64,000 bases of DNA from an uncultured virus (IMG/VR IMGVR_UViG_3300028591_000162) (Duplodnaviria > Heunggongvirae > Uroviricota > Caudoviricetes), in the IMG/VR virus record IMGVR_UViG_3300028591_000162. The stretch is one strand, 5' to 3'. Under the pieces are notes generated by a model. That model did not search any database. It was not told where the DNA came from and was given only the letters and a program-made list of their open reading frames with translations. The translations under genes and the position numbers were made by a program. How positions within the stretch are numbered: the first letter of the stretch is position 1; every line of letters starts with the position of its first letter. Of the stretch, positions 5,601 through 47,049 are shown piece by piece.

Positions 5601-6079
5601 CGGTTGACCGCAAGAACATCAAGATTCCTGTTCCTGCAAGCGGCAAGAGGGTACTCTATATCCGTGCTGACTACTGCATCGGCAAGGTAAACATCCAGTC
5701 GAAAAAGGAAGGCAGGGAAATGATACCGCAGGAAACGCTTCTTTCCTACCTTATGTCTTCCTCTGAATACCTCGGCAAGAAAACGTCACCGCTGAAGTTC
5801 AGCGTGATAGGCAAGGACGGCTTGCCAGTCCGTCAGCCTTTCTTTGAGGATGGTGTCATCAAGAGATATGATATTCTCTATGACCAAGAGCGTCCGTTAG
5901 TCTTCGACTATGATGCCCTTTGCGAGAACAGGGAAATAGACTTCCATCGCAGCACGCAGTCCTTCGATCCTTCAGAAGTGAATGAGGATGCGGATGTCTT
6001 CTCTTCCCAGACCGCAAATGAGAGTGTAACGCAACAGCAGCTTGAATTTGAACCAACCGAAGAAGTAGCACCTTTTTGA
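2699..6079 (+). CDS. DNA primase (CHC2 Zn finger + Toprim) fused to a C-terminal P-loop helicase-like domain
   Basis: CCPFHKEKTPSF..HCFGCG; FRGRLMIP; KYLNT; CEGAPD; DSD; Walker A GKKGTGKT, Walker B VYFDE. Confidence 0.9.
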   Translation: MIKPIYIEAAVDIDLSKVVSGLHSDNIIKKGIHHACCCPFHKEKTPSFYINSLTNRYHCFGCGESGDTIEFVMKYTGKDFSEAVVYLLENYRKDIDISSIYVERSSEEEEKYRERETMYIYNKYAFEFFRQEYLADNDEALQCRRYAENTKLSDDGKVGTSGRWDKEYCAFFGLGYSPRTGNKLVQYAVKKGLRLDILEKIGLIVRKDDGADSESPSSYYDFFRGRLMIPQRDKAGRIVTFTARLLNCKKGDAKYLNTKDSAIYSKSETIFGIDVALKAAKAAGKIYLCEGAPDVMRLQSIGIANAIASLGGSWCKKQFDQLASFNPTLCFIPDSDPPKEGERLGPGYKFVMKNGRLATELGFKVNVREIPAGEGVKEDVDSFVTNEKRWSELVEKDFILWYAEHTYDETATRDEQLQCIDDICDILVLVKDEKLQKSLLADLKDRYKQPKIWQAGLTDSAHRLQDKKREKAQKTSGDDLLKYRFYRADKHYYGIDGQGHEQQWTNFILKPLFLISNNEKPSRIFELENEEGEKVTVELRQADVTNLNQFKEKIEGKGNYRFRMKAEQYEDLKAYMYDKTELAVRVNQMGWNMIAEDGFFAFSNGIVYNGKWCEVDEYGIVRLKNVNVFLPAFSKIYKQNRRSFANERRFIHNPLRRITAEEYFGKLIEVYGSNAVVGIAYYLATIFRDIIFSSTHSFPLLFVYGKKGTGKTELCISLTRLFQEDDISSLASTTLYAMGEKLAQVSNGLVYFDEYKNSLSKERIDILKGIYNSTGRNKRSNDGESREQTSVDCGVVITGQEIPTADIALFERTIFLEAMTSERTNEDTDRFHELLELRRSGVTSITVDMMKYRERFSAVWEKSWRKALHDIKDKIEYNTVSERLYNNWAVLYATVLCMESLNDSLLPFTSEEFFELSIKLLEYQASKSHSTDELALFWSTFAKARLAGEIFEKQDYKIETVTKPLSVTVDRKNIKIPVPASGKRVLYIRADYCIGKVNIQSKKEGREMIPQETLLSYLMSSSEYLGKKTSPLKFSVIGKDGLPVRQPFFEDGVIKRYDILYDQERPLVFDYDALCENREIDFHRSTQSFDPSEVNEDADVFSSQTANESVTQQQLEFEPTEEVAPF

Positions 6080-6105
6080 AATACATGATTCACATCTAAA
6101 ACAAA

Positions 6106-6837
6106 ATGATTATGACAGACAATAGAAGAACACTGATTATCACAAGAGTAAAGAACGGTTTTCTCTATAAGGCACGGCTCCAGGAAGAGCCGGAGATTAT
6201 GATGGATTCAAACGATGCTTCCTTCTATACCGCAATAGGAGAAAAGTTATTCGGCTCTGCCTACAAGAGTATGAAGGTCGGGAATACCTACCAGATGATG
6301 GCAGACTACCAAAACCTTTCTCAGTCAGCAGGAAGGGAGGAAAAAATTGTAAAGGAAAACGAAGAAAAGGTAAGCGAAAGCACGCCGCATGACTTTTACG
6401 AACAGACAGCATCAGCCATGAGAAAGCTGTTTTTCCTCAACAATCCACCAGATTGCTTCCTTATATCCACCGGCAGTACACCCTTGCATCTGGACTATTA
6501 CCTATTCCTCGGTGATGCAGCGGTATATGTCGCAGACATGCTCGAAATGGAATATTCCATTTCCGACAAGTCAAAAGAAAGCCCCTCTCAGAACAGTGTT
6601 TGCTACCTGAAGATTTCGGCAACCAAATATAACAACATGCGACTGTCCTTGCTCGGATGCCGTATCATACGTTTTGATGCCAACACTCTTGCCAATATCG
6701 ACAACCAGTATAACCAGAGACTCACGAAAATCAGGGAAGAGCTGCAATCCATCAACAGAAAGGAGATTGCCATGCAGAAGCAGCGTGAGGAAGAGAAAGA
6801 CAAGTCTTCCTCTTCAAAAGGAAAGAAGGGGAAATAG
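6106..6837 (+). CDS. Hypothetical protein
   Basis: 243-aa ORF directly after the primase. Confidence 0.65.
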   Translation: MIMTDNRRTLIITRVKNGFLYKARLQEEPEIMMDSNDASFYTAIGEKLFGSAYKSMKVGNTYQMMADYQNLSQSAGREEKIVKENEEKVSESTPHDFYEQTASAMRKLFFLNNPPDCFLISTGSTPLHLDYYLFLGDAAVYVADMLEMEYSISDKSKESPSQNSVCYLKISATKYNNMRLSLLGCRIIRFDANTLANIDNQYNQRLTKIREELQSINRKEIAMQKQREEEKDKSSSSKGKKGK

Positions 6838-6951
6838 TATCAAAATATTGTGTAAAAATTATATTATTTTAATATTTCATATTTCTCCTTCCCTCAATGC
6901 TCTGGATAATATTAACGTCCTGAGAGTCATAGCGACGGTAATATTTCAACA

Positions 6952-6991
6952 AGAATATAGTTTAATAAGTTATTATACTATTACATTAATA
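6952..6991 (-). repeat. Short inverted copy of the 8-bp array upstream of the parA promoter (candidate operator)
   Basis: Minus-strand units TATTAATG TAATAGTA TAATAACT TATTAAAC; promoter TAACTTTG at 7075-7082. Confidence 0.55.
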
Positions 6992-7108
6992 AATATAACT
7001 GTAGAATATAGTTAAAATGTATTAAATAGCATCACTTTTCCTCAATATTTTGAGGTAGTTTCGGAGTTTTTTAGTAACTTTGCAATATGAATAAATAAAG
7101 AGAATAAA

Positions 7109-7921
7109 ATGAAAAAAGCGAAGATTATAGCAGTAGCCAACCACAAGGGAGGCGTAGGCAAGACTACTACAGTAGCCTGTATAGGCAGCATCCTTTCTGA
7201 AAGAGGGAAGTCGGTGTTATTGATAGACCTTGACGGTCAGGCGAACTTGACGTATTCATTTATTGAGCAAAGTCCCACATCAACGATAGCGGATGTTCTT
7301 CTCGGTAGCAAGGATATGAAAGTCCCGGTTGTGAACATAGAGAAAAACCTTGATATTATTCCTTCGGATATAGAATTGGCTTATGCGGAAATGCAGCTGA
7401 TAAGCAAAATATCAAGGGAAAGAATACTGGCTAATATTCTCGAAAGGCAGTCCGACGGTATTTCTCTGGTTGAAAAGTATGACTATATTCTTATTGACTG
7501 TCCTCCTTCCCTCGGTATTCTCACTCTCAATGCCCTTACTGCGGCAGACGAGGTAATAATCCCGGTAGTGGCAGAGATACTGCCCATCAAGGGTTTGGAG
7601 AGGATAAAAGAGGCAATAGAAGAGGTAAGGGAATCCATAAATTCCTCTCTGGAAATAAAAGGAATATTACTGACCAGATGGGAACCGACCAAGCACGCAA
7701 AGGAAATAGAGTCCGGGCTACGTGAGGCGATGCCGTCAATGGTATTCCTCCAGAAAATCCGCAAGAACATCCGTATTGCCGAAGCTCCTGCTGAAAGCAA
7801 GAATGTCATCAAGACAGCCCCCAGTTCTCACGGGGCCATAGACTATCAGCTATTTGTAAATGAACTGACACCCGGACTGTTCAATAAGAGGGAAATAGAG
7901 AAACTAAGAAAAATGAGATAA
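7109..7921 (+). CDS. parA: ParA/Soj family partition ATPase
   Basis: Deviant Walker A KGGVGKTT, IDLDGQANLT, DYILIDCPPSLG. Confidence 0.95.
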   Translation: MKKAKIIAVANHKGGVGKTTTVACIGSILSERGKSVLLIDLDGQANLTYSFIEQSPTSTIADVLLGSKDMKVPVVNIEKNLDIIPSDIELAYAEMQLISKISRERILANILERQSDGISLVEKYDYILIDCPPSLGILTLNALTAADEVIIPVVAEILPIKGLERIKEAIEEVRESINSSLEIKGILLTRWEPTKHAKEIESGLREAMPSMVFLQKIRKNIRIAEAPAESKNVIKTAPSSHGAIDYQLFVNELTPGLFNKREIEKLRKMR

Positions 7922-7922
7922 T

Positions 7923-8261
7923 ATGAGCGAAAAGAAGAAAAATAATAAAATGTCTGCCCTGATAGGTTCTCTGACTCAAAAGGTTTCTCCTGAAGCCGAA
8001 GAGTCTGAGGCAAGGGTGATACAGACATCTAAAAATGAAGAAAGGCAAAAGAAGTCTATCCTCAGTGCCAGTATAAGAAAAGATCTTTTTGAGAAAGCGA
8101 AAGCCCTCTCCATCAAATACAGCATTTCGACTTCTGCTATCATAGAAGATGCGTTGACACTGTATCTGGATGAATTTGAACAGGAATATGGGGTTATTGA
8201 GGTTGGAAAAATAAAGAAAAATATTCTACCAAAAATCAAGGGAAAACCCTCTGAAAAATAG
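7923..8261 (+). CDS. Putative ribbon-helix-helix centromere-binding protein (type Ib ParB/ParG-like)
   Basis: Small gene coupled to parA; SILSASIRKDLFEKAKALS..STSAIIEDALTLYL fits a beta-alpha-alpha pattern. Confidence 0.65.
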   Translation: MSEKKKNNKMSALIGSLTQKVSPEAEESEARVIQTSKNEERQKKSILSASIRKDLFEKAKALSIKYSISTSAIIEDALTLYLDEFEQEYGVIEVGKIKKNILPKIKGKPSEK

Positions 8262-8344
8262 GGAAATCCCTTTGCATATCTCGCTAAAAATGAGTACCTT
8301 AGAGGTAGAAATAAAGGATATAAACAACTTTAAATTTTACCATT

Positions 8345-8440
8345 ATGATTATTACGATTTTATTAGTTTATTTCGGCTTTAAGTTCGTAGGAGCTGTTAC
8401 AAAAGCTACATTCTCTGGTTCTTATTACAGGGACAGGTAA
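8345..8440 (+). CDS. Small hydrophobic peptide (31 aa)
   Basis: MIITILLVYFGFKFVGAVTK...; AT-rich leader; below the ORF-track cutoff. Confidence 0.35.
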   Translation: MIITILLVYFGFKFVGAVTKATFSGSYYRDR

Positions 8441-8518
8441 AGGCTTGAATTGTTCAGGCGAGTAATTAACGAAAAAACAAAGAAGACTAATTGTTAAATT
8501 CTTAAAACCATAAAGATT

Positions 8519-9235
8519 ATGAAAAAGATATTTATTGCCCTGCTGTCAGTAATTTGTGTAACCATGTCAGCGCAGAAAAGCACAACGGTTGAAGAACCTG
8601 AGTTCTTCAATACCTACCATATCCTTGTCTCTGATACGACGATGATGCCCCTTCCCAAAGAAAAGGGAGAAATCGGAAAGCACCAGAACAAAGTTTCCAA
8701 ATGGTCATCTATCGTAAGAAAAGCATCCACCGCCGCAGGTGCATTAGGAGCAATAGGTGCAGTTACAGGTAAGATTCCCGGCACAACAGGATTGAAAGCT
8801 ATTCGAGCTGCTTCCTCTGTGGATGCCGCCGCAGGTGTAGCCAACACTCTTGCCGGACAAAAAGGAATGGATGTTATCTTCAAGGGAGCCCATTCGCCGT
8901 ATGTGGTAAAGAAAAATGCCATGAGGGACATTTGTATTATCGCCACTCTTTATAGTAATGACATAAACCCTATGGATTATTATAGGATTGTCAAACTCAA
9001 TACCAGTAAAAAGGAGCGCAGAATCCAAATACGTGAAATAGAGACTTCTCTCTTAGGTTCTTCCAAAGAGCAGGGATATTTGCCATTTGAAGCGCACAGG
9101 GAAAGTAAGACGGCTTGCATGATAACAATACAGGGGGAAGACGTGGAGCCAGGCGAGTATGCAATACTGGCGTTTGGTGGTTCTCTCGGAACAGCAGGAA
9201 TGTTTTCTGTTGCAACATTCAGTGTAGAAAATTAA
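8519..9235 (+). CDS. Exported protein with signal peptide
   Basis: MKKIFIALLSVICVTMSA signal peptide; Gly/Ala-rich segment. Confidence 0.7.
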   Translation: MKKIFIALLSVICVTMSAQKSTTVEEPEFFNTYHILVSDTTMMPLPKEKGEIGKHQNKVSKWSSIVRKASTAAGALGAIGAVTGKIPGTTGLKAIRAASSVDAAAGVANTLAGQKGMDVIFKGAHSPYVVKKNAMRDICIIATLYSNDINPMDYYRIVKLNTSKKERRIQIREIETSLLGSSKEQGYLPFEAHRESKTACMITIQGEDVEPGEYAILAFGGSLGTAGMFSVATFSVEN

Positions 9236-9248
9236 AAACAGAAAGAAT

Positions 9249-9620
9249 ATGACGAGAAAAAAGATGGAAATAATTTCCCTTGTCTCTGCGGTGGTTCTAT
9301 TTGCCACAATACAGGGGTTTCTTATAACGATGGCTATAACGTACTCAACTCGTCCGTTGACATCGACACTATTGTTTCTGGCTTTGTTCTCTCCTATATA
9401 TTACAATCTTGCAAAGACATTCCGTTTCCTTCCTTATCAATGGAGGGTATTCCAAGTGCAGAAATTCAATGAGACAAAGTATGTAGTACAGCAGAAAACT
9501 CTCTTTGGAACATGGAAGGATGTAACTGACAAGAAGACCGGCACAGAGAAACTATTTTCTCACGAAGAAGCACAGAAATACATAAAAGAAAACAAAGAGT
9601 ATTGGTATAAGGAGGTTTAA
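9249..9620 (+). CDS. Membrane protein (2 TM)
   Basis: Two hydrophobic N-terminal segments. Confidence 0.6.
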   Translation: MTRKKMEIISLVSAVVLFATIQGFLITMAITYSTRPLTSTLLFLALFSPIYYNLAKTFRFLPYQWRVFQVQKFNETKYVVQQKTLFGTWKDVTDKKTGTEKLFSHEEAQKYIKENKEYWYKEV

Positions 9621-9621
9621 G

Positions 9622-10116
9622 ATGAACACAGAAAGTATAAATAGCACTATTATATCAAAAAACCTGATGCTCGGTGATTACGTCAACATAAACGATGAAT
9701 TTTGCCCACTCGTTGCAAAAGTGTCAGGCGTGGGAGGATGGACTACTGTAAACAATGAGACAGTACCAGCCATAGAGTATGTTATTCCCTCTTCTTCAAT
9801 AAGCGTAGTATGTGCCATCACCAAGGTAAGTCCAATATCTGTAAATGCTGATATTCTTGAAAAGAACGGCTTCAAGAGAGTGCCACAATCAGGCTGTACC
9901 AACCCTTATCATTGGCTGCTTGAAAAATACGAGGAAGAAGGCGATGGGTTGCTATATCGCATCACGGCGTATAGAACACCGTTTCGTGGAATGTATGTCA
10001 TCATCAACAATCATGCAGATTGTGAGACCATTAATTTTAGAAAACAGATTGAACACTTCCACGAATTGCAACATGCCTTCCGACTGTGCAGCATTCCTGT
10101 GTTAATACGACCGTAA
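9622..10116 (+). CDS. Phage hypothetical protein
   Basis: LMLGDYV...ILEKNGF...HELQHAFRLC pattern recalled from Bacteroidales phage proteins. Confidence 0.65.
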   Translation: MNTESINSTIISKNLMLGDYVNINDEFCPLVAKVSGVGGWTTVNNETVPAIEYVIPSSSISVVCAITKVSPISVNADILEKNGFKRVPQSGCTNPYHWLLEKYEEEGDGLLYRITAYRTPFRGMYVIINNHADCETINFRKQIEHFHELQHAFRLCSIPVLIRP

Positions 10117-10257
10117 GACAACGACATCACGCTAAAAGATAATTCTAAGGATGCTCCTATTGGTAACAAAGGAGGCTGTCAGCAGTTATAAAGTCACGAC
10201 GGTATTGCACATCCATAGGATTCATCCGTTTAACCAACGGAAAAAAACTGAGAAAAC

Positions 10258-10351
10258 AGTCCTTCAGGACTATTGGGTAGGTTGTACTGCCTTAAGCTGA
10301 GGGCATGACCACTCGGCAAGTCACTACCAGCAGGTATGTTAAATCATACCC
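10258..10351 (+). ncRNA. 94-nt tracr-like scaffold RNA, copy 1
   Basis: Near-identical at 12130 and 13587; hairpins GTCC-TTCA-GGAC, TGCC..GGCA, GGTATG..CATACC; directly abuts the first repeat. Confidence 0.75.
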
Positions 10352-10453
10352 GGTGTTAATCTCCGTTAAATGCAAGTGATATACAACAGAGCCAAGCATC
10401 AAGTTCTGACTTGACGAGGTGTTTTTCACCGTAAAATGCAAGTGACATACAAC
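10352..10453 (+). CRISPR. Mini array 1: 2 repeats (36 nt), 1 spacer (30 nt)
   Basis: Repeats 10352-10387 and 10418-10453; consensus GGTGTTnnTCACCGTAAAATGCARGTGACATACAAC. Confidence 0.85.
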
Positions 10454-10498
10454 TCTATGGACAAACTCGTAAAAAAATTAAACTAATGAAAAGAAACT

Positions 10499-10615
10499 AT
10501 GACTGAAATGGAAATCGACATCCTGACAATACTTTCAATAGCAATGCTTGTCATTGTCCTGATAATTATTGCAAGAGAAATATACAATCAGATAAACAAG
10601 CACAACTACGATTAG
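10499..10615 (+). CDS. Small single-TM peptide (38 aa)
   Basis: MTEMEIDILTILSIAMLVIVLIIIAREIYNQ...; between array 1 and the Cas12f-like gene. Confidence 0.4.
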   Translation: MTEMEIDILTILSIAMLVIVLIIIAREIYNQINKHNYD

Positions 10616-10668
10616 ACTTCTTTCATTAGATTTTCGACCAGTATAACACAGAGACAAACAGCAAAACT

Positions 10669-11865
10669 ATGATTATTACAAGGAAAATAGAGATTTATGT
10701 CTGTGAACCAGACAAAAAACTCAAAAACGATTATATGCAGACGCTATGGAAATGGCGTGACCTCGTGCGCAAGGCTGCGAATATCATAGTGTCACATAAA
10801 TTCGTTCAGCAGTCCATCCGGGATTTTGTATATATCAAGGATGACATCAAGGAAAAATTCTATGTTTCCAACATCATAAGAGAAGGGAAAGGTATGAGTG
10901 AGCAGAATACCACCTACAGGCTTCTTTCTGACATGATGAAGGGTGTTGTTCCATCGGACATATATTCATCGCTGAATCAGAATATATGCAAGTCATTCAA
11001 GGAATCCCTGCCGGACGTACTGAGGGGTGAAGCCTCGATAAGGAACTATAAAAACAGTATTCCTATCCCCTTTTCTTCCAAGTCTTTTGCTTCGGCGTTC
11101 CGCAAAGGTCCCGACGGTAAGTTTTACTTCAATCTCTTCGGTATTCCTTTCTGTTGCTATCTGGGACGTGACAGGTCAAACAACGAGGCAATTCTGAACA
11201 GGTGTCTGGCAGAGACATACAAGATTTGCAGCTCTTCAATAGCATTTGAGAAGCGTACAAATCACGACACAGGAAAGAGGGTGCAGAGATTATTCCTTAA
11301 TCTCTGCGTGGATTTACCAAAGGAAGAAATACCTCTTAACAAGAAGAAGTATATATATGCCTATCTTGACGTTCACCACCCAATAAAATGCTCTTACATC
11401 GTGAACGCAAAGCAGGAAGAAGACAGTGGCATAAAGTGGTGCATGATAGGCAATGAAACTGAGTTTCTTTACAGACGCATACAGATACAAGAAGCTGTAA
11501 AGCGTTGTCAGGAAAACAATAAGTACGCTACTGGCGGTCACGGCAGGAGGAAGAAGACGAAAAGAATAAGGTTCTTCCATAAATTAGAAGAAAACTATGT
11601 GACCACAAGGATGCACACCTATTCAAAGATGTTGATAGATTATGCCATCAAGCATAACGCAGCAACGATAATCCTTATGAACCAAAAACCCAGAGAAGAA
11701 AAGGCAAAACTCGAAAATAACAAAGAGAATCCTTTCTTGTTGAGAAACTGGTCATACTTCGGGCTGAAGGAGAAAATTCACTATAAGGCACAGAAGTACG
11801 GAATAAAAATCATTGAAGATGTTCCACCCCAAAATAAAAGCGAAGATGAAAATGAATACGAATAA
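10669..11865 (+). CDS. Cas12f/TnpB-family protein with inactivated RuvC (dCas12f-like)
   Basis: MIITRKIEI N-terminus; SIRNYKNSIPIPF; FLYRRIQIQ; GGHGRRKK; HTYSKMLIDYA; LRNWSYFGLKEKIHYKA..YGI; RuvC-I and RuvC-II acids replaced; no Zn finger or RuvC-III; flanked by CRISPR arrays. Confidence 0.85.
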   Translation: MIITRKIEIYVCEPDKKLKNDYMQTLWKWRDLVRKAANIIVSHKFVQQSIRDFVYIKDDIKEKFYVSNIIREGKGMSEQNTTYRLLSDMMKGVVPSDIYSSLNQNICKSFKESLPDVLRGEASIRNYKNSIPIPFSSKSFASAFRKGPDGKFYFNLFGIPFCCYLGRDRSNNEAILNRCLAETYKICSSSIAFEKRTNHDTGKRVQRLFLNLCVDLPKEEIPLNKKKYIYAYLDVHHPIKCSYIVNAKQEEDSGIKWCMIGNETEFLYRRIQIQEAVKRCQENNKYATGGHGRRKKTKRIRFFHKLEENYVTTRMHTYSKMLIDYAIKHNAATIILMNQKPREEKAKLENNKENPFLLRNWSYFGLKEKIHYKAQKYGIKIIEDVPPQNKSEDENEYE

Positions 11866-12130
11866 AAGAAACAACATCAAAACAAGGATGCGGAAGCTCG
11901 CCATTAAAGGAAAACCTTTAATGGAACTGATTGACCCATTCATATTTTACTTCTGTCCCTCCGTAGCCATCGCAACAATAGCGGTGTTGCTGATGATAGA
12001 GATAGGCACCGATATTCTCCTATTCTTAGTGTTTTGCTTTACAGGATGGATTTTCTACCTGTCATTCCAGTTGTTCTTTGATGGCTTGCTACAGATATAC
12101 GAGATAATAAAGAAGAAAAATAAAAACTAA
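11852..12130 (+). CDS. Membrane protein (2 TM) overlapping the dCas12f stop
   Basis: Hydrophobic segments; its stop codon abuts scaffold copy 2. Confidence 0.55.
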   Translation: MNTNKRNNIKTRMRKLAIKGKPLMELIDPFIFYFCPSVAIATIAVLLMIEIGTDILLFLVFCFTGWIFYLSFQLFFDGLLQIYEIIKKKNKN

Positions 12131-12223
12131 GTCCTTCAGGACTATTGGGTAGGTTGTACTGCCTTATGCTGAGGGCATGACCACTCGGCAAGTCACTACC
12201 AGCAGGTATGTTAAATCATACCC
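12130..12223 (+). ncRNA. 94-nt tracr-like scaffold RNA, copy 2
   Basis: One substitution versus copy 1 (hairpin loop). Confidence 0.75.
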
Positions 12224-12389
12224 GGTGTCCCTCATCGTAAAATGCAGGTGACATACAACCATGGGGTTTCGAGAAGCCTCTGTATCAGGTGTTAATCACC
12301 GTAAAATGCAAGTGACATACAATTAATTTAGAGTAGTTATTAGGTACATAGGTGGTGTTCCTCACCGTAAAATGCAAGTGACATACAAC
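12224..12389 (+). CRISPR. Mini array 2: 3 repeats, 2 spacers (28, 30 nt)
   Basis: Repeats 12224-12259, 12288-12323, 12354-12389. Confidence 0.9.
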
Positions 12390-12419
12390 AATACCAACAG
12401 AGATTTAAAACAAAGAATT

Positions 12420-12680
12420 ATGAAACGCATACCATCAAGTACAACAAGTATTACAACATCTATCTTTTGGGAAGAAAACACCTATCCCAACCGTGATAAA
12501 GCCGTGGCTTTAGTTAAGAAGAATGACCTTCAGGAGAAGGAGAAACTAAAGAACGGTTGGCGGTGGATTCCTGTTCATAAGAACCACAAGATTCTCGTTC
12601 CTTGTGACAAACAAGGTAATCCCACACCAGAGGGAGAGAAAAAAATACAGAAGTTTCAAGAAATGTTTGACACGAAATGA
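12420..12680 (+). CDS. Hypothetical protein
   Basis: Start re-called at MKRIP because the upstream ATG lies inside a CRISPR repeat. Confidence 0.6.
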   Translation: MKRIPSSTTSITTSIFWEENTYPNRDKAVALVKKNDLQEKEKLKNGWRWIPVHKNHKILVPCDKQGNPTPEGEKKIQKFQEMFDTK

Positions 12681-13033
12681 AAAAAAGTATGAAAATACTC
12701 CACCTACCGCTTAAAGCGGAATGGTATCGCATGATAGAAAGCGGAGTCAAAACAGAAGAGTATCGCAGTGATAAGCCATACTGGAGAAAGCGACTCCTGC
12801 GATGCTATAAGAGTATTGATTGGTGTGATGACGGAGTTTCCTGCCGCTCCTGCTCAGTGTATCAAAAGAAACAATTCCGTAACTATACACACGTTTGTTT
12901 TAGATATGGTTATACATCCCGAACCATGACATTCGAGATAAAAGATATAACCATTGGAATAGGAAAATACGAATGGGGAGCCCCGACGGAAAGAAATGTA
13001 TTTATAATCAAACTTGGAAATAGAATTAAATAA
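12677..13033 (+). CDS. ASCH/PUA-like domain protein (Cys-rich insert)
   Basis: LPLKAEWYRMIESGVKTEEYR, GxKxxExR motif. Confidence 0.8.
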   Translation: MKKSMKILHLPLKAEWYRMIESGVKTEEYRSDKPYWRKRLLRCYKSIDWCDDGVSCRSCSVYQKKQFRNYTHVCFRYGYTSRTMTFEIKDITIGIGKYEWGAPTERNVFIIKLGNRIK

Positions 13034-13064
13034 ATCAAATATCAACAATTAAAACTGTAGAACG

Positions 13065-13568
13065 ATGGAAGAAAAGAAAGATTATGAAGAAATGCGTAAT
13101 GGTATATGTGAACGCATGAAGCTTTTGGCAGAAAAAAAGCTTGAAATAGTTCCAGACCTCGAATTGTGGATAGGAGAGTTTAATGATGAGTTTGCGAAGG
13201 CAAGTCAAAAGATGTTAAATAAAATGCCAAAAGCTTATACTGAGGTAGGAACTGTCGAAGCATATTTAGTGGGATTGGCTCAATTTACGTGCAGGGTGCT
13301 GACTCGATGGCAGAACAGGGGAATATTTTCTGATGAAGTGGACGGAATGAAATTTTACACCGAAGTTTTGCTGCCTATATGCAACGATGTAGCAAAGGCA
13401 GATTGGGAAGCAGAGGAAGAAGCTGAGAATATCAGTAAGGATTTGGAAGACGTGGATATTCCTATAGATGATATTCTACAGAAATATTTTGCGGACAAGA
13501 AACAAGATTGGGATGTTTTGCGCAAGGAATTTGAAGAATTGCGTGAAATAGTAAAAAAAGGCGATTAA
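13065..13568 (+). CDS. Hypothetical acidic protein
   Basis: 167-aa ORF with AT-rich leader. Confidence 0.65.
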   Translation: MEEKKDYEEMRNGICERMKLLAEKKLEIVPDLELWIGEFNDEFAKASQKMLNKMPKAYTEVGTVEAYLVGLAQFTCRVLTRWQNRGIFSDEVDGMKFYTEVLLPICNDVAKADWEAEEEAENISKDLEDVDIPIDDILQKYFADKKQDWDVLRKEFEELREIVKKGD

Positions 13569-13586
13569 GAATTAAATAAAAAACTA

Positions 13587-13680
13587 AGTCCTTCAGGACT
13601 ATCGGGCAGGTTGTACTGCCTTAAGCTGAGGGCATGACCACTCGGCAAGTCACTACCAGCAGGTATGTTAAATCATACCC
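13587..13680 (+). ncRNA. 94-nt tracr-like scaffold RNA, copy 3
   Basis: Two substitutions versus copy 1. Confidence 0.75.
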
Positions 13681-13846
13681 GGTGTTTTTCACTGTAAAAT
13701 GCAGGTGACATACAATTCTGGCACTTCTATTTCTTCATTTATCACAGGTGTTCCTCACCGTAAAATGCAGGTGACATACAACAATACAACTATATCGAGT
13801 ACTTCGCTGGGGGTTTTCTCACTGTAAGATGCAGTCGCCATCCTCG
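13681..13846 (+). CRISPR. Mini array 3: 2 repeats + 1 degenerate terminal repeat, 2 spacers (30, 28 nt)
   Basis: Repeats 13681-13716, 13747-13782; degenerate GGGTTTTCTCACTGTAAGATGCAG from 13811. Confidence 0.85.
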
Positions 13847-13947
13847 GAAACGACAATCAGACAGTCATCGAAAGGCTGCAACCTCGAATATTGAGCTGCC
13901 AAGATATACCGACAAAGAGATTTACGAATTTGATAAAATCTGAATAT

Positions 13948-14733
13948 ATGGCAAAGTTAGGAAAAAGAGAAATCGTTGTTGAAAATAAAATCGACCCTAC
14001 TATAAAATTTAGATTTGAGGTCGAAATCAACGTATCAAAAAAAGGAGAGTTCTACTTCACTCTGAATGATAAACAGAAAGAAACCTTGTTGAATAGCGGA
14101 GTAAATCTGAATAATACCATCAATCATAAGACCAAGCAAATCGGAACTTTCTACTCAGATACATTAGAAAAACTTTTATCTGAATTTGGGGAAATTCTAA
14201 AAGAGGCAGTATCAGCAGAGGTAATAGAAGATAAATTCGTCATCCTCTACTATATCAAAACAGAATGCACATATTGCTTGGCGAGTGGCGAGCCTGTTCC
14301 TAATGGCTACTATGTACCAATCGAGGAAAGAATAGATAGGCAATATGTTAATTGGGTAGAAGGAACTACTACTGGAGAGCATGGATTTGGGTTCTCCGCA
14401 TACGCTATGATATATAAAAAGCAAGTTCTTCGATTTAAGAGCGGTCAAGAAAAAACATTCTTCTATGCTATCAGAAATGAGCAGAAAAAAGAATTAGGGG
14501 ATTACGGTAAGAAATTATCAGATTTCATCATCCCTGCTCAGGATATTCGAGATGCTTACAATAATTGGTCTATGGGGGAAAAGAAAGAAATCGCATATAC
14601 AGAAGAAAATGCTAAATTCTTCTACGAAGTCCTGATAGCAGTTTGCAGGATGAACGAGAAGATAAAAGGCTTTATCAATGAGCCTGAAAAATTGCAGATG
14701 CTAATCAATTCACAAGTAAAACTACTAAAATAA
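13948..14733 (+). CDS. Hypothetical protein
   Basis: Long ORF; ATG start MAKLG. Confidence 0.65.
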   Translation: MAKLGKREIVVENKIDPTIKFRFEVEINVSKKGEFYFTLNDKQKETLLNSGVNLNNTINHKTKQIGTFYSDTLEKLLSEFGEILKEAVSAEVIEDKFVILYYIKTECTYCLASGEPVPNGYYVPIEERIDRQYVNWVEGTTTGEHGFGFSAYAMIYKKQVLRFKSGQEKTFFYAIRNEQKKELGDYGKKLSDFIIPAQDIRDAYNNWSMGEKKEIAYTEENAKFFYEVLIAVCRMNEKIKGFINEPEKLQMLINSQVKLLK

Positions 14734-14745
14734 TTTCAACGCAAC

Positions 14746-15129
14746 ATGACGAAGAAAGAGATTATGAACGAGTACGGCGATTGCACCTGCGAACAAATGC
14801 TGGCGTATCTGACGAAGATTCAAAACCTTCAGAAGAAAGCGGCAGGAAAGATGACGGTGGATGTAAAGGTGTTGCATGACAGCGGTGCGATATTCGGCGG
14901 TGTCGTGCGAGAACCAGAGATAAGCATCTGCGTGACGCTCATGGACGTGTACGACCATGAGGACTATCAAAAGAGTTGGGACTTGTACCAATTCTATCCC
15001 ACTAACAAGAACGATGAACTGTTTGCCGACCTCAAGAAGGACATCGAGCAATTCATCAAGGACTTCGACAAGGAATGGAAGCGCAGACGCGCCAACTACA
15101 TTAAACGACACGGAAAGGATTGCGTATGA
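14746..15129 (+). CDS. Hypothetical protein
   Basis: ORF in the early operon. Confidence 0.6.
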   Translation: MTKKEIMNEYGDCTCEQMLAYLTKIQNLQKKAAGKMTVDVKVLHDSGAIFGGVVREPEISICVTLMDVYDHEDYQKSWDLYQFYPTNKNDELFADLKKDIEQFIKDFDKEWKRRRANYIKRHGKDCV

Positions 15130-15347
15130 AAGCAGAAGAAATAGTAAAAGGAAGTCTGGTCATCATCAAACACTCAAAAGAGGGTGGTGAGGTTATTGAA
15201 ACAAACCGTACAGACGGGAGGTTTCTCATAAAAGTTGCAAGGATGAAAGTCAATGCAACTGGGGTTAAGACACAAATAATAAATGTTCTGGTCGATGCCG
15301 ACGATCTGGAACCTATTAAGAAACAGAAAGGTGTTGTTATTATTTAG
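15126..15347 (+). CDS. Hypothetical protein
   Basis: ATGA overlap with the previous ORF. Confidence 0.55.
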   Translation: MKAEEIVKGSLVIIKHSKEGGEVIETNRTDGRFLIKVARMKVNATGVKTQIINVLVDADDLEPIKKQKGVVII

Positions 15348-15421
15348 CGTATGACTGACGAGCAGAAGCGTGAGCAAATAAGTTTTCTCTACAGAACAGA
15401 AAATAAATATAAGAAGGAGGA

Positions 15422-15628
15422 ATGACTATGGCAAAGAGAAATCAGAAATTACAACAACCAGAACTAAACGTAGGGCTTTGCCGGGATTGTGCATTAGTTA
15501 CATACGTCACAAGATGGGAAACACTGAGTTTAAAACGTGAGCCTACATTAGGTACATGCCCTCATCAAGAAGTGAAAGTGCTGCTGTCACAGCGTGGCTG
15601 TCCGCACTGGAAAGAAAAGACAGTGTAA
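15422..15628 (+). CDS. Small Cys-rich protein
   Basis: CRDC...CPH...CPHW. Confidence 0.55.
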   Translation: MTMAKRNQKLQQPELNVGLCRDCALVTYVTRWETLSLKREPTLGTCPHQEVKVLLSQRGCPHWKEKTV

Positions 15629-15698
15629 ATAAAGAATAAAACAGAATGTAATAGTCTTTGTTCTTAACATAAATATTAACCAGAAAAAATAGTAAAAT

Positions 15699-16034
15699 AT
15701 GGATTTTGTAGATATTAAAGCAAAGGTATCTCGATTAGAAGAGATAATTGCGGAGGCAAAGGATATTATTGATTCCATTAATGAATACAAGGAATACTTT
15801 ATATATAATGGATGCTGCAACATTCTTGTTGACTGGATAAGATTAGACTCTCCAAGCCAGAATTTCCATTTTCATAATATCTGTGTGGAATTAGGTATTA
15901 AGAATATCGGGGACCTGATAAAGATTCCTTTTGAAGATTTTTGTGTCAAGGCAAGGAGAATTGGGAAGATGCGCCCAAGTGGAATTGCTGCACTTCGAGC
16001 AACATTAAAAGAAATGGGAATAGAATGGAAATAA
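15699..16034 (+). CDS. RNA polymerase alpha-CTD-like (HhH) protein
   Basis: NICVELGIKNIGDLIKIPFEDF...IGKM...LRATLKEMGI resembles alpha-CTD NCL..AGI..IGDL...L....GK.S..EI...L...G. Confidence 0.55.
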   Translation: MDFVDIKAKVSRLEEIIAEAKDIIDSINEYKEYFIYNGCCNILVDWIRLDSPSQNFHFHNICVELGIKNIGDLIKIPFEDFCVKARRIGKMRPSGIAALRATLKEMGIEWK

Positions 16035-16561
16035 AAGAAGGGAAAAATAAAAGGGAAAATATAATCTCACGCTTACAGAAGGTAGAGAATTTCTATATAA
16101 AAAACGGCAGTCTTGATAAACTGTCAAGGTCATATAGAAATTGGCTTCGTTACACCACCGACGAAATCAACGCCATACCATACTGGCGTAATCGCCTGAA
16201 GGAAATGGGATGGCAGCAAAATATGTCATACAATGACCGTAATATAGAATATCTGAGAATAAAAACACATGAATATGGTCGATTCCCTACCATAGAAGAA
16301 ATACCTCCCCGGATTCTGAAATGGATAAGGAAGGTCATGCTGAACAGACAACAGCACAATTACGCTGTTATTCTTAGGAAGATGGGATGCACTCTGTATG
16401 AAGACGAATACAAAAATCAGAGAAGGAAAGTCCCGAAGAAGAAAATAATCACTGAAGTACACCCTCTGATAACAAAGTCCAGACAGATTGTAGAAAGCGG
16501 TCGCCCACATTCTAAAATAGTAAGACTTGTGTTGAAAAGGCTGAAAAATCATATAAAATAA
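16025..16561 (+). CDS. Basic hypothetical protein
   Basis: ORF overlapping the previous stop. Confidence 0.55.
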   Translation: MEIKEGKNKRENIISRLQKVENFYIKNGSLDKLSRSYRNWLRYTTDEINAIPYWRNRLKEMGWQQNMSYNDRNIEYLRIKTHEYGRFPTIEEIPPRILKWIRKVMLNRQQHNYAVILRKMGCTLYEDEYKNQRRKVPKKKIITEVHPLITKSRQIVESGRPHSKIVRLVLKRLKNHIK

Positions 16562-16644
16562 TATAATGTTCAACATCTAAAACAAAAAACGAAGCACCAA
16601 AGAAAATATATTTACAAGAACCCACAAAAGTTCGTACACAAAAG

Positions 16645-16992
16645 ATGTATGATAATGATGTTAAATATATCCGCAAGGATGCCTTTATTGAGAAGGCTTG
16701 CGAGTGGATTGAAACACAAATGGACGATTATATCCACGTTAAGTATGATACTATGACAGAAAGAGAAAATAATATATATAAAGCGGCAAGAGAACATAGC
16801 GACACTCGCGACAATAGAATGTCATTCTGTTGTGGTGCTCGATGGGCAGACAACCATCCTAATGCTATTGATATGTCCTACTTGCAAAATTGGTATCAAG
16901 ATTCTATTGATGAAACTAAAGAACCTATTTGGACTGACCAACATCTTGAAGAATTATTTAATGATTTCTATTTGATTCCAAAATCCAAATAA
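16645..16992 (+). CDS. Phage hypothetical protein
   Basis: FIEKACEW and GARWADNHP motifs recalled from Bacteroidales phage proteins. Confidence 0.55.
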   Translation: MYDNDVKYIRKDAFIEKACEWIETQMDDYIHVKYDTMTERENNIYKAAREHSDTRDNRMSFCCGARWADNHPNAIDMSYLQNWYQDSIDETKEPIWTDQHLEELFNDFYLIPKSK

Positions 16993-16994
16993 TT

Positions 16995-17747
16995 ATGGCA
17001 ACAAAGATAGAATGGACTTCTACGGTATGGAACCCAGTGACAGGATGCACAAAAATTTCAGCGGCTTGTCAAAACTGCTATGCAGAAGTGATGGCAAATA
17101 GACTGAGTGGTATTCCTGTTACAAAGGAGAAGTACAGAAACAAATTTGAGGTGACTCTTCACCCAGAATGTCTTAATGAACCTTTCAGTCTGAAAAGTCC
17201 TAAAATGATTTTCGTTTGCTCAATGGGAGACCTCTTCCACGAGTATGTACCTTATAAATTTATAGACAGGGTACTGAAAGTTATAGAGGAGAATCCTCAA
17301 CATACTTTTCAACTCCTGACAAAACGAGCTGAACGGATGTTTAACTACTTCCATAACCACAGAAAAGACAAGGCTCCAAAGAACTGCTGGCTTGGGGTGA
17401 CATGTGAAAGTAGTAAGTATAAAGTCCGTATTGATTACCTCACAACGATAGAAGCTCCAGTAAGGTTTATATCTTGTGAGCCTCTGCTTGGAGACATGGG
17501 AGACATAAACCTCAATGGTATTGATTGGGTGATAACTGGAGGCGAAAGTGGTGTAAGGGCGAGACCGACCCCAGCGGAATATTTCTATTCACTCCGTGAT
17601 ACCTGCATAAATCAAAATGTCCCGTTCTTTTTCAAGCAATGGGGAGCCTACGGAGCTGACGGAAAGAAACGTCCGAAGTATGAGAACGGCAGTATTCTTG
17701 ATGGAAGGGAATGGAAAGAATACCCGAAAATCAGAGAACAATATTAG
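16995..17747 (+). CDS. DUF5131 (phage Gp37/Gp68) radical-SAM-like protein
   Basis: IEWT..WNPVTGCTKISAACQNCYA; FVCSMGDLF; LLTKR; WVITGGESG; FFFKQWG. Confidence 0.92.
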   Translation: MATKIEWTSTVWNPVTGCTKISAACQNCYAEVMANRLSGIPVTKEKYRNKFEVTLHPECLNEPFSLKSPKMIFVCSMGDLFHEYVPYKFIDRVLKVIEENPQHTFQLLTKRAERMFNYFHNHRKDKAPKNCWLGVTCESSKYKVRIDYLTTIEAPVRFISCEPLLGDMGDINLNGIDWVITGGESGVRARPTPAEYFYSLRDTCINQNVPFFFKQWGAYGADGKKRPKYENGSILDGREWKEYPKIREQY

Positions 17748-17763
17748 TAACCAACAAAAATTA

Positions 17764-19383
17764 ATGACTGATAATATTAAACTCCTATATATAGACCTGT
17801 TCTGTGGGGCTGGCGGCACCAGTACAGGTGTTGAAAAGGCAACCTTTCACGGTGATAAGTGTGCCAAGGTCATTGCCTGTGTCAATCACGATGCCAATGC
17901 CATTGCATCCCATGCTGCCAACCATCCCGATGCGCTCCACTTCACGGAGGACATTCGTACACTTGAACTATCTCCACTCGTTGCGCACACAGAACGCTTG
18001 CGCCTACTTCATCCCGATGCTTACCTGGTACTATGGGCTTCACTTGAATGTACCAACTTCAGCAAAGCAAAGGGAGGGATGCCACGCGATGCTGACAGCC
18101 GTACACTTGCAGAACATCTGTTCCGATATATCGAGGCTCTGCGTCCCGATTACATTCAGATTGAGAACGTGGAAGAATTTATGTGTTGGGGCGACATGGA
18201 CGAGAACGGACACCCTATCAGCAAGGACAAAGGAAAGTCGTATGTCCGTTGGGTGAACAACGTCTGCAAATATGGATATTACTTCGACTGGCGCATACTC
18301 AATGCAGCGGACTATGGCGCATATACCAGTCGTAAGCGTTTCTTCGGGCAGTTCGCCTTGCATGGTCTGCCTATCGCTTTCCCGAAAGCCACACATGCCA
18401 AATGCCCTGCAAAGTATGAGCATAGCCTGTTCCCTGCCGACAATATGCAGCCTTGGAAGCCTGTGCGCGAAGTTCTCGACCTCAACGATGAGGGGGAAAG
18501 CATCTTCGGACGCAAGAAACCGCTTGTCGAGAAAACACTGGAGCGTATCTATGCAGGGCTAATCAAGTTTGTTGCTGGTGGCAAGGAGGCTTTCATCGTG
18601 AAGTGGAACAGCGTTAACGGAAAGACAGGAAAGTATGTACCGCCAAGTATCGACGAACCTTGCCCTACTGTTGCGACACAGAACCGCCTCGGCGTAGCAA
18701 AGGTGCAGTTCCTAAGCAAGCAATTCGGTGGCGACCCGGCAGGAAAGAACATCAGCGTGGAAGAACCTGCCGGCACAATCACCTGCCGCGACCATCACGC
18801 TTTTGTGTCTGCTCACTATGGTAATGGCTTCAACACTTCCGTTGATGCCCCTGCGCCTACGCTTACCTGTAAAGACCGCCTCGGACTGGTAACAAGCAAC
18901 TTTCTTGTTAATGAGTATAGTGGCGGTGGACAGACATCTGATATAGATAAGCCATGTCCAGCATTACTTACCAACCCCAAACAGAAAGTCGTGTCTGCTC
19001 AATATCTTATGAACCCACAATTTGCCAACAAAGGAGGCAGCATCGACAAACCTTGCTTCACGCTCATTGCTCGCATGGATAAGATGCCACCGTATCTTGT
19101 CAGCACAAAAGAGGGACTTGCCATTGAGGTTTACGAGACTGACAGCCCTGCAACCATACAAATCAAGGAGTTTATGGCTCTCTACGGTATTGCAGACATC
19201 CGTATGCGTATGCTGCGCATACCCGAACTAAAACGTATCATGGGCTTTCCCGAAGATTACACACTCATTGGCACACAGGCAGAGCAAAAGAAGTTCATCG
19301 GCAATGCCGTCGAGGTGAACATGGCGCGTGTTCTTTGCGAGGCTCTTTGCAAAAAACTTAATCAAAAGAAACAAGCAGTATGA
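17764..19383 (+). CDS. DNA (cytosine-5) methyltransferase
   Basis: DLFCGAGG, WASLECTNFS, IENVEEF, TSRKRFF, IGNAV. Confidence 0.92.
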   Translation: MTDNIKLLYIDLFCGAGGTSTGVEKATFHGDKCAKVIACVNHDANAIASHAANHPDALHFTEDIRTLELSPLVAHTERLRLLHPDAYLVLWASLECTNFSKAKGGMPRDADSRTLAEHLFRYIEALRPDYIQIENVEEFMCWGDMDENGHPISKDKGKSYVRWVNNVCKYGYYFDWRILNAADYGAYTSRKRFFGQFALHGLPIAFPKATHAKCPAKYEHSLFPADNMQPWKPVREVLDLNDEGESIFGRKKPLVEKTLERIYAGLIKFVAGGKEAFIVKWNSVNGKTGKYVPPSIDEPCPTVATQNRLGVAKVQFLSKQFGGDPAGKNISVEEPAGTITCRDHHAFVSAHYGNGFNTSVDAPAPTLTCKDRLGLVTSNFLVNEYSGGGQTSDIDKPCPALLTNPKQKVVSAQYLMNPQFANKGGSIDKPCFTLIARMDKMPPYLVSTKEGLAIEVYETDSPATIQIKEFMALYGIADIRMRMLRIPELKRIMGFPEDYTLIGTQAEQKKFIGNAVEVNMARVLCEALCKKLNQKKQAV

Positions 19384-20061: not shown

Positions 20062-20390
20062 TGAAACTCTACATCGCAACACCTATCAACGCTCGGCAAG
20101 AGCCGACAATGCGCGAGAAACTTATCTCGGCAAAACATCGTGTCGAAATGCTGAAAGAAATCCTTGCGGATGATGTTCAGTTCAAAGACTACGAACTGAC
20201 AAGCACTTTCGACTTTAACAACATGTACGACGCAGACGAAGAAAAGGCTATGTCACGGTGCATCTACCATGTCCTTACTTCCGATGCTATCTACCTTGAC
20301 CACGGCTGGACTGCATCCAAGGGCTGCAACCTTGAATACCGTGCAGCCAAAATCTACGGCAAACAGATTTTTGAACATGATAAACTCTAA
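20061..20390 (+). CDS. DUF4406-like (nucleoside deoxyribosyltransferase fold) protein
   Basis: LYIATPI...DAIYLDHGWTASKGCNLEYRAA. Confidence 0.75.
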   Translation: MKLYIATPINARQEPTMREKLISAKHRVEMLKEILADDVQFKDYELTSTFDFNNMYDADEEKAMSRCIYHVLTSDAIYLDHGWTASKGCNLEYRAAKIYGKQIFEHDKL

Positions 20391-29552: not shown

Positions 29553-29702
29553 GCCTTCAGGACACTTAGTTATGTTTCGGCTTTCTACATCATGTAGGGT
29601 TGCCGAGGCTCAAACCCTTCGCCCTTGCGGTCAGTGTACACGACACTGGTGTATAGGAACGATATTAAACAGTCTGCCTCCGAAAGACAGATGTATCTTG
29701 CT

Positions 29703-47007: not shown

Positions 47008-47049
47008 CAAAGTTAAACCCTGCCGACACTTTTTCTCCGTTATCTATTG
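47008..47049 (-). promoter_or_regulatory. Putative late promoter CAATAGATAAC-N23-TAACTTTG (portal-terminase)
   Basis: Conserved motif and spacing. Confidence 0.7.

Follow-up and report, generated by a model that had tools for sequence, protein, structure and literature searches.

The stretch of viral DNA analysed here, 64,000 nucleotides long and hereafter called the window (IMG/VR record IMGVR_UViG_3300028591_000162, Caudoviricetes), carries at 10669-11865 (+) an uninterrupted open reading frame (ORF) for a 398-aa homolog of Cas12f and, near it, three units in which a structured RNA scaffold is fused to a CRISPR array. The window is a Bacteroides-type phage of the ruminant gut. Its proteins include a P22-type portal, an SU10-like capsid protein, an amidase, a DnaG-type primase, a single-stranded DNA-binding protein, ParA, a C5 methylase and YopX; the portal is 67-69% identical to the portals of the 64-65-kb Bacteroides phages BS-TP4 and BKO1-TP3, and the stretch occurs in the gut metagenomes of 17 studies (sheep, goat and bovine). 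The guide units are embedded in the early gene block. The function of the Cas12f homolog is decided by three features: the scaffold-plus-CRISPR units in three copies, carriage by a phage and the lack of a sigma factor.

The initial annotation had claimed that all RuvC catalytic positions are lost while the ORF stays intact, and both halves of this claim hold. A Pfam search with the 398-aa protein gave no match, and NCBIfam returned only TnpB and Cas12f2, both below the cut-off. Among PDB sequences the best match was 9n9c_A, a "nuclease-deactivated Cas12f" (E 4e-67, query residues 4-382 against residues 9-363 of the 365-residue chain), followed by active Al3Cas12f (9nzo/9nzr, E 7e-46) and then by other Cas12f and TnpB structures. 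Because the best match is the solved nuclease-dead Cas12f (dCas12f) of Flagellimonas, this kind of protein has already been published. In the HMMER alignment to active Al3Cas12f (9nzo_B), VGVDLGINIP lies opposite IYAYLDVHHP (residues 229-238), with the catalytic Asp facing Tyr232, and IQMERL lies opposite IILMNQK (334-340), with the catalytic Glu facing Asn338; the active-Cas12f motifs quoted in the initial annotation agree with this alignment. The protein stops at residue 398, only 16 residues past the GIKII motif, these last residues (383-398) being the tail EDVPPQNKSEDENEYE. Active Cas12f enzymes run on beyond GIKII into a Zn ribbon and RuvC-III, and the window dCas12f is without both, so the early end that had been read from the translation is also confirmed.

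The replacements are not peculiar to the window. Among 30 aligned family members, the RuvC-I catalytic column holds Tyr in 22, Phe in 7 and Ile in 1, the RuvC-II catalytic column holds Asn in 19, Lys in 6, Asp in 3, Arg in 1 and His in 1, and the C-terminal truncation is alike in all 30. A rescue of the active site by the Asp of the YLDV motif had been named as a result that would overturn the claim; a role of Asp234 as a substitute catalytic residue is unlikely because its column is unconserved, with Gly in 19, Asp in 7 and Ser in 4 of these members. An AlphaFold model of the window protein built on the family alignment (mean predicted local distance difference test score, pLDDT, 76; predicted template modelling score, pTM, 0.63) superposed best on 9n9c and 9n9m, both cryo-EM structures of dCas12f (TM-score 0.70-0.79, 35% identity) and next best on active Cas12f enzymes. 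The acidic tail, which may contact a partner as the initial annotation suggested, is predicted to be disordered (pLDDT ~33); net-acidic tails of at least 8 residues are present in 22 of the 30 relatives, and the other eight carry at most 5 residues. The window protein combines full-length Cas12f homology, replaced catalytic residues and a C-terminal truncation, by which the dCas12f family is recognised, and it lacks the RuvC D-E-D triad and the Zn ribbon that mark an active type V-F enzyme.

A homolog search returned 773 homologs; among the matches listed one was 96% identical and the rest were at most 61% identical, and the mean column identity of the 30-sequence alignment was 62%. In IMG/VR, a scan with the single protein matched nothing, and an alignment-based scan gave 32 records with homologs. 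The nearest viral record to the window (G001) has no dCas12f homolog, GenBank phages were matched only by TnpBs of ~25% identity, and BS-TP4 and BKO1-TP3, the nearest named phages by portal, gave no dCas12f match in that GenBank phage search. The ratio of nonsynonymous to synonymous substitution rates (dN/dS) was 0.02-0.06 in eight intact homolog pairs (dS 0.28-0.90), and the pair L009/L010 gave 0.037 at a dS of 1.39. Near-identical pairs are uninformative for this ratio, and the median over all pairs, 0.52, is dominated by pairs with the frameshifted homologs L041 and L043; we relied on the intact pairs. These substitution ratios indicate that the homologs are under strong purifying selection, which answers the check for neutral decay that the initial annotation had proposed. 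The two frameshifted homologs lie in related IMG/VR records (G027 and G029, 7001-8118), one of them classed as a provirus, and the frameshift may be decay or a sequencing error. The broader proposal made with the first reading, exaptation as a DNA-binding factor rather than decay, is well supported by the homology to dead Cas12f, the number of homologs, their low dN/dS and the guides with protospacers described below.

A ~150-nt element occurs three times in the window, always on the + strand, at ~10235, 12107 and 13564. In each unit a near-invariant scaffold of ~94 nt runs straight into a 36-nt repeat, after which come 28-30-nt spacers and more repeats, with a period of 64-66 nt (Table 1). 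The same scaffold-plus-array architecture also flanks homolog genes elsewhere, where the arrays have a 65-66-nt period, and all 25 scaffold instances across the window and the homolog loci lie on the strand of the gene. In a covariation test with 18 of these 25 instances aligned, two scaffold stems were 96.3% paired, compared with 76.9% in column shuffles, of which 0 of 500 reached the observed value; the pairing fell to 38-47% when the partners were slid, and compensatory double changes were seen in 8 of 15 scaffold pairs. The CRISPR array and the partner RNA resembling a trans-activating CRISPR RNA (tracrRNA) that characterise type V-F are both present, anti-repeat pairing of the scaffold being predicted. 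Rfam has no family for the scaffold RNA, and the exact 36-nt repeat was absent from the IMG/VR search.

Table 1 Positions of the dCas12f gene and of the three guide units in the window.
Feature	Position	Strand	Remarks
dCas12f gene	10669..11865	+	398 aa; REC/WED, truncated catalytically dead RuvC, disordered acidic tail (residues 383-398)
Unit 1 scaffold	10258..10351	+	tracr-like, ~94 nt, fused directly to first repeat; three near-identical copies; covariation in relatives
Unit 1 repeat 1	10352..10387	+	36 nt
Unit 1 spacer A1S1	10388..10417	+	30 nt; matches HTH_17 gene of int-xis-primase islands
Unit 1 repeat 2	10418..10453	+	
Unit 2 scaffold	12130..12223	+	
Unit 2 array	12224..12389	+	repeats 12224-12259, 12288-12323, 12354-12389
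Unit 2 spacers	A2S1 12260-12287; A2S2 12324-12353	+	A2S2 replaced in run X2
Unit 3 scaffold	13587..13680	+	
Unit 3 array	13681..13845	+	repeats 13681-13716, 13747-13782; spacer A3S1 13717-13746
Unit 3 array end	~13810-13845 (terminal repeat)	+	~27-nt spacer-like stretch, then degenerate terminal repeat

The spacers turn over between the repeats. The records G017 and G023 have a repeat in common and different spacers; in run X2, spacer A2S2 is replaced by another spacer between conserved repeats; and at loose contig ends in runs X1, X2 and X3 other sequences follow the same repeats. A DNA contig of run X2 also joins 12389, the end of the last unit 2 repeat, to 13602 in the unit 3 scaffold, skipping 1212 bases; this junction is either a natural deletion variant that arose by recombination between units or an assembly artefact.

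Among 401 sampled genomes of Bacteroidaceae (the family around a Bacteroides genome), five contained a match to 28-29 of the 30 nt of spacer A1S1. The matched site is inside a gene for a 131-aa excisionase-family helix-turn-helix (HTH) protein (HTH_17), directly upstream of and co-oriented with the gene for a 1074-aa DnaG primase. The surrounding integrative island is small and syntenic and contains a second HTH_17/excisionase protein and a tyrosine integrase, followed by variable cargo; no structural genes were detected in it, and the annotated copy L088 adjoins dnaK. The primases of the island and of the window phage are 33% identical, the phage has no homolog of the targeted HTH gene or of the island integrase, and none of the five island genomes has a dCas12f homolog. 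At the cargo end of the island (L088 17943-19379 (-); L091 17926-19350 (-)) we observed a protein that combines Schlafen/AlbA_2 with HATPase_c_4 and resembles Argonaute-associated proteins weakly in PADLOC; it may be defence cargo.

A sister phage, represented by an 80-kb metagenome contig, lends this target independent support: it carries the identical scaffold and repeat at three places with different spacers, and one of its guides matches a second site in the same 131-aa HTH gene (27-29 of 30 nt) in all five island genomes. Over both guides and the five genomes, the 5' flank of the protospacer was TTTG at nine of ten sites and TTAG at the remaining one, and both protospacers are on the antisense strand. 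The window's one known target is coding sequence within a mobile island, and the TTTG flank has G at -1. Since the gene matched by the guide is a regulator in a rival mobile element, competitors are probably silenced by the phage and not cut.

Guides directed at the carrier's own DNA were seen in two more distant relatives. The L033 guide matches its own sequence over 30 of 30 nt at an intergenic, sense-oriented site that ends 11 nt before a start codon, and this site is conserved in L030 and L032, both without the spacer; the G012 guide matches 29 of 29 nt inside a 396-aa ORF. Such perfect self-targets, tolerated in these relatives, would be viable only if the effector does not cut. In the window itself, none of seven guide-position sequences matches elsewhere in the 64 kb. 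Several shorter matches were set aside. Those of A1S1 18-mers in five IMG/VR contigs extended over only 18-21 nt between unrelated flanks, as did those of A3S1 20-mers at nine loci (four distinct sequences), which end at 18-21 nt, and both sets were judged to be chance; the 22-25-nt matches to A3S1 and trailer sequences in the 401 genomes were at noise level. A2S1 and A2S2 had no match in IMG/VR, and A2S1 also had none in the JGI metagenomes.

RuvC-dead Cas12f proteins that are directed by guides have been described, so that the proposed exaptation towards DNA binding agrees with what is published. In the parts considered here of the report by Hoffmann et al. (Nature 2026, PMC13472631), homologs of Cas12f are presented in which RuvC is mutated and the C terminus truncated; dCas12f, with an operonic extracytoplasmic function (ECF) sigma factor as partner and a single guide RNA of 85-105 nt, starts transcription 46 bp from a target-adjacent motif (TAM) of 5'-G. 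The C-terminal domain of the sigma factor, sigmaE, is described as docking onto the truncated RuvC domain (10.1101/2025.06.10.658880).

We looked for such a sigma factor around the window gene and its homologs. None of 44 window ORFs, a scan that left out two giant ORFs (2808 and 5647 aa), and none of 20 neighbours of dCas12f at E<=1 had a sigma domain. Sigma70_r2 was found in none of the 32 IMG/VR records with homologs, including the seven that are at least 90% complete; r4-type sigma matches occurred in 11 of the 32, all weak except one above the cut-off, ~68 kb from the homolog. At 15 bacterial homolog loci, no sigma factor was detected in 83 scanned neighbour ORFs (of 96) within 3.5 kb, L007, L013 and L014 being left out of the scan as having the same layouts as L006 and L012. 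As a positive control, 7 of 401 sampled Bacteroidota genomes have homologs, and a sigma-70-family gene was directly upstream in all four classical loci (L098, L099, L100 and L103), two of which also carry a divergent HTH gene as in PMC13472631. The operonic rpoE, encoding sigmaE with a C-terminal extension, that defines dCas12f-sigmaE systems is missing from the window locus.

In a quick maximum-likelihood tree, the backbone of which was unresolved, the sigmaE-linked dCas12f proteins formed one separate clade (SH-like approximate likelihood ratio test, SH-aLRT, 99), and the window dCas12f clustered with a viral contig and a Prevotellaceae metagenome-assembled genome (MAG) (96) within a mostly virus-borne Bacteroidales assemblage. 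Neighbourhoods of some bacterial homologs are of separate interest. The most distant ones (L004, L012, L013 and L014; 32-39% identity) lie directly downstream of susC/susD genes, and no sigma factor was present within 3.5 kb of the L004 and L012 homologs. The published dCas12f-sigmaE system typically targets susCD operons (PMC13472631). In L003, a Prevotellaceae MAG with a close (55% identical) homolog, a 312-aa protein with HTH_17 and an RNA polymerase alpha C-terminal domain is encoded at 11635-12573, ~3.4 kb downstream of the homolog. In L006/L007 (Dysgonomonas), the homolog adjoins genes for a coupling protein, a relaxase and MobC, and it therefore belongs to a mobilisable or conjugative element rather than to a phage.

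The window locus and the dCas12f-sigmaE system share the protein family, the fold, the RuvC inactivation, the C-terminal truncation, a structured RNA, encoded next to the gene, whose 3' end is the guide, and a G next to the target. They differ in that the window protein is phage-borne, belongs to a separate clade and has no rpoE or hth partner. In addition, the window has CRISPR repeats with turning-over 28-30-nt spacers, which are predicted guides, whereas dCas12f-sigmaE is described with one chimeric 85-105-nt guide RNA (gRNA) with a 14-16-nt guide; the window has a longer TTTG flank and a coding target in a mobile element, whereas dCas12f-sigmaE is directed upstream of susCD-type operons. 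Another near published likeness, possibly the same clade, is a "distinct cluster" of CRISPR-linked dCas12f without rpoE, mentioned in the legend of Extended Data Fig. 1a,b and in Supplementary Table 4 of PMC13472631. As described there, and compared with the window by description only, its members are nuclease-dead and next to CRISPR arrays, with a putative covarying gRNA upstream and repression proposed, as in the window; the example given is chromosomal, in a Chitinophagaceae MAG, and its guide is directed at the promoter of an efflux pump. The same source lists a tested homolog, Bba, with no sigmaE, no HTH and no gRNA identified, and in it the word "phage" occurs in the reference list only.

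Other inactive effectors are similar in action rather than in descent. Cas12m (type V-M) resembles our favoured reading, set out below, in having an inactive RuvC and blocking essential genes of a rival element without cutting, and resembles the window in being borne on mobile elements (plasmids, prophages) without an adaptation module, but it belongs to another Cas12 lineage, is a much larger protein, has no tracr-like scaffold and is mainly plasmid-borne, as the review PMC11656645 describes it. TldR is likewise a phage-carried, nuclease-dead, guide-RNA-directed repressor of the TnpB family (10.1101/2023.11.30.569447, PMC13418256). According to these accounts it was domesticated from TnpB independently of dCas12f and, unlike the window system, uses one fixed guide, directed at the flagellin of the host, with neither a CRISPR array nor turnover of spacers. 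Vibrio phage ICP1 reportedly uses CRISPR-Cas to attack the PLE satellite, a chromosomal island that hinders the phage, and its system is said to be a complete, cutting type I-F with adaptation genes, unlike that of the window. The likeness lies in a phage CRISPR system turned against a chromosomal island, the satellite nature of the window's target island being hypothetical. The "Cas12 hacker" (10.1101/2025.01.20.633832) is a different protein, described as an active nuclease of 500-700 aa. In the literature covered, which did not extend to supplementary figures or to the tree of PMC13472631, we found no phage-borne dCas12f with arrays against mobile elements.

We consider it probable, with moderate confidence, that the window encodes a phage-borne, RNA-guided, non-cutting dCas12f that silences rival mobile elements. 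Probably dimeric like Fta dCas12f, the protein would load scaffold-repeat-spacer RNAs from the three nearby units, and the complex would recognise matching double-stranded DNA beside 5'-TTTG. Because there is no RuvC active site, it would bind without cutting and stay on the target as a stable R-loop, which would block expression of the HTH-primase operon of the island. The phage would thereby silence genes of rival mobile elements to its own benefit, the target identified being an AlpA-like excisionase-family HTH gene. By analogy, this would be a binding-only interference such as has been described for Cas12m on plasmids. A more specific version, which we offer tentatively as a possibility, is a miniature natural CRISPR interference (CRISPRi) system, in which a 398-aa dead Cas12f and units resembling single guide RNAs silence the master regulator (an AlpA/excisionase-type HTH protein) of a satellite-like island, with guides that are renewed without adaptation genes.

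An RNA-guided transcription activator like dCas12f-sigmaE, which would borrow a host sigma factor in trans, recruit RNA polymerase and start transcription ~46 bp from the TAM, appears rather unlikely. The window protein is 35-46% identical to sigmaE-linked dCas12f, and its truncated RuvC is the same docking surface that the sigmaE C-terminal domain is described as using (10.1101/2025.06.10.658880). However, no rpoE was found in the window, in the 32 viral records or near 13 bacterial loci, with a control that was positive on classical loci, and the protein falls outside the sigmaE-linked clade. The L033 guide site has the placement of an activator target, being intergenic, sense and just upstream of a gene, but a start 46 bp from its TAM would land ~4 nt inside the ORF, and three of the four identified targets are inside coding regions. 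The spacers, 28-30 nt long and turning over, also differ from fixed 14-16-nt guides. At the HTH gene, TAM-side transcription would be antisense, so that even an activator could silence there. Control of the phage's own genes, temporal or between lysis and lysogeny, through self-directed guides is quite improbable: the perfect self-targets in L033 and G012 and the embedding of the units in the early gene block would suit it, but none of the seven guide-position sequences finds a second site in the window (part of the genome may lie outside), the spacers are unconserved, and the self-targeting spacer of L033 is absent in close relatives that keep the target site.

We regard an anti-CRISPR decoy that absorbs the CRISPR RNA (crRNA) or tracrRNA of a host type V-F system as very unlikely. 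Such an action has been proposed for phage-borne inactivated Cas9 (review PMC11656645), but this phage brings arrays of its own, with protospacers that have a consistent TAM, and a search of the 401 Bacteroidaceae genomes sampled showed no array with the same repeat or scaffold. That the gene is a decaying, functionless TnpB/Cas12f relic is effectively refuted by selection and by the guide-target evidence: the missing Pfam match, the sub-threshold NCBIfam match to TnpB and the frameshifts in L041 and L043 are what decay could leave, but a dN/dS of 0.02-0.06, a mean column identity of 62% over 30 relatives, a conserved RNA partner and matched protospacers argue against it.

Several points weigh against the silencer that we favour. 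A target was found for one of the four clear window spacers, the other three giving nothing credible in IMG/VR and the 401 genomes, and two of the sister phage's three units had no match in the 401 genomes. In most genomes A1S1 has a mismatch at guide position 8, which could be within the seed. Both HTH-gene guides pair with the coding strand, the weaker roadblock orientation for dCas12a, and the L033 target is placed as expected for an activator. The target island may be a satellite, an integrative element or a defective prophage. No adaptation genes that would account for spacer acquisition were seen, cas1, cas2 and cas4 being absent among the 44 window ORFs scanned. The RNA evidence consists of contigs assembled from two RNA libraries, which may contain DNA; they cover the dCas12f gene and its neighbours and are compatible with its expression. 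These contigs lack the bins with the scaffolds and repeats, a gap that is uninformative either way because repeats break assemblies.

The rest of the window shows further features of the phage. The early block (6000-18000), which holds the dCas12f gene, has a GC content of ~39-41%, compared with 47-55% in the structural half. A ParA ATPase gene is followed by one for a small, weakly matched ribbon-helix-helix protein (7109-8261 (+)), a partition-like pair that suggests episomal maintenance, and the 44 ORFs scanned include no integrase. A reverse transcriptase (28209-29664 (-), 447 aa, RVT_1) adjoins an RT-3 RNA (Rfam RF03068, 54 bits) and a DUF4376 protein, which together look like a diversity-generating retroelement in the tail region. 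The giant ORFs lie at 29999-38425 (-) (2808 aa) and 47040-63983 (-) (5647 aa), the larger one reaching the window end. Two gene blocks each have a copy of a 44-nt direct repeat (80% identity) immediately upstream, at 13866-13909 and 20314-20357, possibly as a common regulatory element.

The published dCas12f proteins are described as chromosomal activators tied to a dedicated sigma factor (PMC13472631). The kind of protein is known; the branch described here is phage-borne, has no sigma factor and carries turning-over spacers that are aimed at another mobile element. If confirmed as a repressor, it would add a mechanism to the conflict between phages and mobile elements in gut Bacteroidales, would document an evolutionary intermediate between cutting Cas12f and the sigma-recruiting form, and would provide a very small (398 aa) natural DNA-binding effector for Bacteroides/Prevotella, with a simple TTTG motif and a native RNA resembling a single guide. 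If the CRISPRi reading is true, this would be an anti-satellite or anti-rival system that works by silencing instead of cutting, directed against an island that would otherwise exploit or compete with the phage.

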